Of a stretch of DNA of 64,000 bases, positions 42,258 through 42,713 are shown piece after piece. The position numbers were made by a program, and so were the translations under genes. Origin of the DNA: Escherichia phage a20; sequence record OQ067374.1, one strand, 5' to 3'. Position 1 is the first letter of the stretch; the number at the start of each line of letters is the position of its first letter. A model generated the notes under the pieces. The model had not been told where the DNA came from, made no database searches, and saw nothing but the letters and a program-made list of their open reading frames with translations.

Positions 42258-42713
42258 TTATTTTAGATCTTCGGCCCAATCTAGTTTTAAGGGTTCTTTG
42301 TATTCACGGTCGAGAATAACCGGAATAGCTACATCACCACTGAATGATAGTTGGCCAACGTTATATGATAACGTTATATGTGGAGTGTAGTCGTCGAAAT
42401 CATGAGTAGCACCTAAAGCTCGTGCATACTGATGACGACATCTAAGATATTCGGAATCAAGAACTAAAACCAGTACAGCGCCGTCGTCAGTTTTCCATAC
42501 CTCAAAGTGTCCTGATTCGGCAACAGAATAACTACCACTAGATGTAGTATATGGTATGTTTACACGTGAATAACAAATTGTTGAATGAAGCTTTTCACGT
42601 GGTACTGGATTAGGAATTCTTAATTTGCGCTGGAGGTCTTCCAGCGCATCAAGTGTTAATTCCGAAAATTTAGCTGCGACGTAGAGGCCTTGTGAAAAGT
42701 CCTCAAATTTCAT
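42258..42713 (-). CDS. 57B: 2H phosphoesterase (gp57B / Acb1-like anti-CBASS nuclease)
   Basis: Two H-x-T/S-x motifs (LHSTICY, PHITLSY); 151 aa; directly upstream of 57A as in T4. Confidence 0.75.

Follow-up and report, generated by a model that had tools for sequence, protein, structure and literature searches.

A probable acb1 gene at the 57B position of Escherichia phage a20, a T4-like coliphage

The window analysed here, a stretch of 64,000 nucleotides from Escherichia phage a20 (sequence record OQ067374.1), carries an open reading frame at the position that gene 57B occupies in phage T4 (Table 1). The original prediction had described a protein of 151 amino acids with the motifs HSTI and HITL, placed between an ipI-like gene and 57A. 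Both motifs are found in the raw DNA, the frame lies on the minus strand (which had not been stated), and the two neighbours match the corresponding protein families as well as T4 IPI and gp57A. According to the ORF list, no rival reading frame longer than 33 amino acids crosses these positions on either strand.

Table 1. Features at and around the acb1 locus of phage a20; coordinates are those of the window.
Feature	Coordinates	Strand	Basis or detail
acb1 (57B orthologue), coding sequence	42258..42713	-	ORF listing: ATG to TAA, 151 codons + stop
First catalytic motif H43-S44-T45-I46 (CAT TCA ACA ATT)	42576..42587	-	raw DNA and alignment; equals T4 Acb1 H44/T46
Second catalytic motif H112-I113-T114-L115 (CAT ATA ACG TTA)	42369..42380	-	raw DNA and alignment; equals T4 Acb1 H113/T115
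C-terminal lid, residues 144-151 LDWAEDLK, including W146 (T4 W147)	42261..42284	-	T4 alignment; equals T4/FBB1 lid 145-152
57A tail-fibre chaperone gene, 76 aa, directly upstream of acb1	42713..42943	-	phrog_1002, E=8e-26; 58% identity to T4 gp57A
TAATG, 57A stop and acb1 start	42711..42715	-	
Gene 1 (dNMP kinase), upstream anchor of the gp1-57A-57B block	42948..43682	-	phrog_139, E=1.1e-59
T4 late-promoter consensus, inside gene 1	43298..43305	-	
Match to gene-1-side Bas35 primer	43031..43054		2 mismatches
Spacer between acb1 and ipI	42182..42257		
Hairpin in this spacer	42210..42236	-	
Early-promoter-like element upstream of ipI	42216..42244		
ipI (internal protein I), 95 aa, directly downstream of acb1	41894..42181	-	phrog_4363, E=1e-47; 87% identity to T4 IPI
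Site of the insertion found in 308Ecol101PP	~41845-41893		
Four small genes between the tRNAs and ipI	40467..41844	-	171 aa phrog_2290; 96 aa phrog_2023; 126 aa phrog_1411; 68 aa phrog_1692 (hydrophobic by eye)
Two tRNA genes	40231..40387	-	Arg-TCT, Met-CAT

The gene order gp1, 57A, acb1, ipI in the window is the same as the annotated order 1, 57A, 57B, ipI of the T4 reference, and farther upstream, beyond gene 1, PHROGs matches identify gene 3 and gene 2. A gp1-57A-57B block preceded by gp3 is also present in Acinetobacter phage Acj9, Aeromonas phage 50AhydR13PP (Tulanevirus), Vibrio phage Va3, Klebsiella phage KP15 and Serratia phage PS2, among which the gene content downstream of 57B varies. 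Internal protein I has an anti-defence role, and in T4 the anti-restriction gene ipI (GmrS/GmrD) is a neighbour of acb1 (PMC9117128).

The TAA stop codon of 57A shares one base with the ATG of acb1. This overlap, the sole basis for the proposal, suggests that the two genes may be co-transcribed and translationally coupled. When sigma-70-type promoters were scanned for, neither the acb1 start nor the sequence just upstream of it gave a promoter-like site. Across the region 13 such sites were found, which is not clearly above the 9.4 expected from shuffled sequence, and two low-scoring matches (9/12) fall inside the acb1 coding sequence itself. A copy of the T4 late-promoter consensus, TATAAATA, lies approximately 355 nt upstream of 57A, although the consensus occurs in the window at chance frequency (8 found, 7.9 expected).

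The spacer between acb1 and ipI contains a hairpin with a perfect 10-bp stem and a 7-nt loop (AGGAUGAUGG...CUAUCAUCCU). When 91 nt surrounding it are folded, the minimum free energy is -16.8 kcal/mol (z=-3.3 versus shuffles). Upstream of ipI the element GTTTACA-N17-TACTAT resembles an early promoter, and the hairpin falls within its spacer. Because the promoter hexamers are kept in T4 whereas the hairpin stem is not, the hairpin may be specific to this lineage or may be fortuitous.

On the far side of ipI, the window carries only two tRNA genes where the T4 region has eight tRNAs, segB and the small RNAs rnaC/rnaD, and a search against Rfam between 38000 and 46000 returned nothing besides these two tRNAs. 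Between the tRNAs and ipI come four small genes that are conserved but have no known function. Judged by T4 map position, those matching phrog_2023, phrog_1411 and phrog_1692 seem to be the counterparts of trna.2, trna.3 and trna.4, and these small genes fall within what Hobbs et al. (PMC9117128) consider an anti-defence neighbourhood. Phage 308Ecol101PP has an additional 87-aa ORF of unknown function (phrog_13302; 2387-2650 of its segment) between the trna.4-like gene and ipI. The window lacks this insertion of approximately 325 bp, which constitutes a presence/absence polymorphism within the neighbourhood.

The protein encoded at the 57B position belongs to a defined family. A Pfam search with the 151-aa sequence matched PF23474 (Acb1) with 197.3 bits (E=1.3e-58; the family cut-off is 27), and residues 8-149 covered profile positions 1-144 of 144. 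Among PDB chains, the top phmmer match was Acb1 from Erwinia phage FBB1 (7T26/7T27; E=1.1e-58, residues 9-148), which is 63% identical over 140 aligned residues. Since this sequence is that of a crystal structure, we infer that the a20 protein shares its 2H fold; a single-sequence AlphaFold2 model (mean pLDDT 39.4, pTM 0.29) was too poor for a fold search. NCBIfam contains no model that matches the protein. Two HxT/S motifs lying about 70 residues apart, with a hydrophobic residue after each, place it in the 2H superfamily, and the spacing of 69 residues between H43 and H112 equals that between H44 and H113 of T4 Acb1.

The original prediction of a 2H phosphoesterase consistent with the anti-CBASS nuclease Acb1 is borne out by these matches and by the catalytic and binding residues described below. 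Its premise that T4 gp57B had been reported as Acb1 agrees with the literature, in which T4 57B was given this name and T4 lacking acb1 was found to be restricted by CBASS (Hobbs et al. 2022, PMC9117128). An alignment to the T4 protein had been proposed as a check. With BLASTP, gp57B (NP_049750.1) and the a20 protein align without gaps over their full length, with 129 of 151 residues identical (85%, E=2e-102), and the lack of similarity that had been named as grounds for rejection did not appear. The identification as Acb1 stands, but the word 'nuclease' is loose for an enzyme characterised as a 2H phosphodiesterase of cyclic oligonucleotides. We assign a probability of roughly 0.93 to the reading that the product of this ORF is Acb1 (anti-CBASS 1) from a T4-like coliphage and that the gene is orthologous to T4 57B in both position and sequence.

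Existing annotation points in another direction, namely to a LigT-type 2'-5' RNA ligase or a cyclic phosphodiesterase involved in RNA repair. The matching PHROGs family, phrog_755, is described as 'RNA ligase', the RefSeq record of T4 (NC_000866) applies the same label to 57B, and Pfam gives a weak match to 2_5_RNA_ligase2 (PF13563; E=0.013), whose members have the pair of 2H-superfamily HxT/S motifs in common with the a20 protein. However, this match, the sole Pfam match besides that to PF23474, covers residues 70-131 only and scores 15.9 bits, below the 27-bit cut-off, whereas the Acb1 profile matches at full length. Moreover, the T4 protein to which the a20 protein is 85% identical has been characterised biochemically as a cyclic-oligonucleotide phosphodiesterase (PMC9117128), and the residues specific for cyclic nucleotide ligands, which include the equivalent of E141, the stacking aromatics and the lid, are all kept. 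A ligase or RNA-repair enzyme is accordingly very improbable, and we rejected the 'RNA ligase' designation of PHROGs and RefSeq for this protein on account of the partial, sub-threshold match to PF13563. The designation seems to be a relic of earlier annotation at the level of the superfamily.

Identification as Acb1 is further supported by individual residues. Structural and biochemical work on the T4 and FBB1 enzymes defined a catalytic HxT/HxT tetrad (H44, T46, H113 and T115), four aromatic residues that stack on the bases (Y12, W74, F107 and W147), a glutamate that contacts adenine N6 (E141) and a C-terminal lid formed by residues 145-152 (PMC9117128), the last of which is needed for catalysis (bioRxiv 10.1101/2025.08.21.671373). 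In a MAFFT alignment, 9/9 of the functional residues from this work are identical in a20 with numbering lowered by one, at positions 11, 43, 45, 73, 106, 112, 114, 140 and 146. The tetrad H43, T45, H112 and T114 aligns with the tetrads of both T4 and FBB1, and Y11, W73, F106, W146 and E140 are the same residues as in T4. The lid sequence LDWAEDLK of a20 is identical to the LDWADDLK of T4 at seven of eight positions. Across nine aligned homologues, with identities as low as 28%, the residues that do not vary include G9, Y11, H43, T45, H112, T114, E137 and E140, and so take in the tetrad, one stacking tyrosine and the adenine-reading glutamate.

Comparison of acb1 codons with those of T4 57B revealed 64 with synonymous differences only and 22 with non-synonymous differences, a ratio of roughly 3:1. 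This excess of synonymous-only changes indicates that the gene is evolving under purifying selection, which adds to the homology, synteny and full conservation of functional residues seen for a20 Acb1. The same counts, together with homologues detected by tblastn in 1469 phage records, argue against a reading frame present by chance. They also bear on the idea that the a20 gene has decayed or no longer functions, whether because it encodes a pseudo-enzyme or because it is not expressed, in the manner of the disrupted acb1 of phage Bas43. Loss of acb1 is known in nature and under Panoptes selection (see below), but in a20 the frame is intact and full length with no premature stop, all catalytic and binding residues are present, the start codon is tied to the 57A stop by the TAATG overlap, and proteins at least 99% identical to a20 Acb1 are kept by 137 phages with deposited genomes. 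An uninterrupted frame, the retention of these residues and the pattern of substitutions exclude decay as a working explanation, and we consider its probability to be close to nil.

The locus has many close relatives. A megablast search with positions 41000-45000 returned more than 130 near-full-length matches of 95-99% identity from Escherichia phages. Among the closest is 308Ecol101PP, which is classified as Mosigvirus, the genus of the nearest relative with a taxonomy line, and in which the orthologue of acb1 is annotated as a 'cyclic phosphodiesterase'. From the published PCR primers for the acb1 region of phage Bas35, only the gene-1-side primer finds a match in a20, which fits a related but different phage lineage.

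Many public records of phages, RefSeq T4 among them, still label members of the Acb1 family 'RNA ligase' or 'hypothetical protein', despite their characterisation in 2022. As an ordinary orthologue of an anti-defence enzyme that has been studied in detail, the a20 protein belongs to what is already known. Its identification is of practical value for the correction of annotations and for predicting sensitivity to CBASS and Panoptes, and carries little weight as a discovery.

By inference from the T4 and FBB1 enzymes, on which we also draw for catalysis, substrate range and role in vivo, a20 Acb1 would be a compact 2H phosphodiesterase that works without metal. Its ligand, a cyclic di- or trinucleotide, would be bound in a U-shaped pocket, where the aromatic residues Y11, W73, F106 and W146 are expected to stack on the nucleobases and E140 to read adenine N6, and the C-terminal lid (residues 144-151) would then close over the ligand. 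Strain imposed on the bound ligand could allow the 2'-OH of adenosine to attack the adjacent 3'-5' phosphodiester, with acid-base catalysis presumably provided by the two His/Thr pairs H43/T45 and H112/T114 acting as general acid and base. The 2',3'-cyclic phosphate intermediate predicted for this reaction would be hydrolysed to a linear product with a 3'-phosphate.

Judged by analogy, a20 Acb1 most likely acts, with no need for metal, to cleave signals that contain adenosine (3'3'-cGAMP, cUA, cAAA and the like). The enzyme would in this way remove the second messengers that activate CBASS effectors. With 3'3'-cGAMP as well as cUA and cAAA destroyed and the effectors inactive, the infected cell would not commit suicide before the phage cycle is complete.

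T4 Acb1 also consumes 2'3'-c-di-AMP and cA3 and consequently triggers Panoptes (bioRxiv 10.1101/2025.08.21.671373). These guard systems hold a toxic effector that is repressed by 2'3'-c-di-AMP or cA3, and they fire on depletion of the decoy nucleotide. Tevenvirinae with an intact acb1 gene are restricted by Panoptes and escape via mutations in acb1 (bioRxiv 10.1101/2025.08.21.671373). Given this promiscuity of Acb1, phage a20 should be exposed to Panoptes, and with acb1 intact it is predicted to be sensitive like other Tevenvirinae that carry the enzyme. For host range, this implies that a phage with intact acb1 should resist many CBASS systems, yet be sensitive to guards of the Panoptes type.

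These predictions presuppose that a20 Acb1 has the substrate range of the T4 enzyme. A member of the Acb1 family with a shifted range might spare 2'3'-c-di-AMP or cA3, for example, or might act on another signalling system. The a20 and T4 proteins are separated by 22 substitutions, and promiscuous Acb1 is selected against by Panoptes. In addition, the divergent 'Acb1' 2H PDE-9 (9Q2G/9Q2Y) belongs to the same structural group as T4 Acb1, and selectivity in this pair is set by differences in the core rather than by the lid (bioRxiv 10.1101/2025.08.21.671373). Nevertheless, every known ligand-contacting residue is identical to that of T4, which makes such a shift distinctly unlikely. The identity of 85% to T4 is also far closer than that of the PDE-9/T4 pair, the sequence of PDE-9 structure 9Q2G being only marginally similar to the a20 protein (E=0.007), and cleavage of 3'3'-cGAMP and cAAA was kept in 9/9 further homologues tested by Hobbs et al. 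(PMC9117128). It is equally doubtful that the 22 substitutions turn a20 acb1, within the canonical Acb1 clade, into a natural allele that evades Panoptes and still destroys CBASS signals; if this were true, the Panoptes decoy 2'3'-c-di-AMP or cA3 would be cleaved less well.

The LigT/2'-5' RNA ligase family (PF13563) has in common with a20 Acb1 the superfamily and the two HxT/S motifs, and the a20 match to this family is partial and below threshold. PDE-9 degrades 3'3'-cGAMP but spares 2'3'-c-di-AMP and does not activate Panoptes (bioRxiv 10.1101/2025.08.21.671373). Its lid is N-terminal, whereas that of the a20 protein is C-terminal, as in T4.

A different variation at the C-terminus is seen in Klebsiella phage KP15 (Slopekvirus), whose 57B homologue (2459-3082 of the KP15 segment) is 207 aa in length and continues for about 55 residues past the position of the Acb1 lid. 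This extension might change how the lid works or supply a second module.

FBB1 Acb1, with structures of the apo form (7T26) and of the complex with 3'3'-cGAMP (7T27), has the HxT/HxT motifs, the tyrosine, the glutamate and the lid tryptophan in common with a20. At the stacking positions where both a20 and T4 have W73 and F106 (a20 numbering), FBB1 carries F and Y, an exchange of aromatic for aromatic residues. The nearest annotated relative of a20 is a Mosigvirus, while T4 is a Tequatrovirus, and several small differences separate their Acb1 proteins and genes. The a20 protein has 151 aa rather than the 152 aa of T4 and is one residue shorter at the N-terminus, where it begins MKF... and T4, with an extra Met, begins MMEF.... 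The junction of 57A with acb1 is a 1-nt overlap in a20 and an annotated 4-nt overlap in T4. None of the 22 substitutions between the two proteins falls at a defined functional site, and the lid differs by one conservative D-to-E change. The catalytic tetrad, the stacking aromatics, the adenine-reading glutamate and the lid tryptophan are all identical to those of T4 Acb1, and the gene occupies the same genomic slot.
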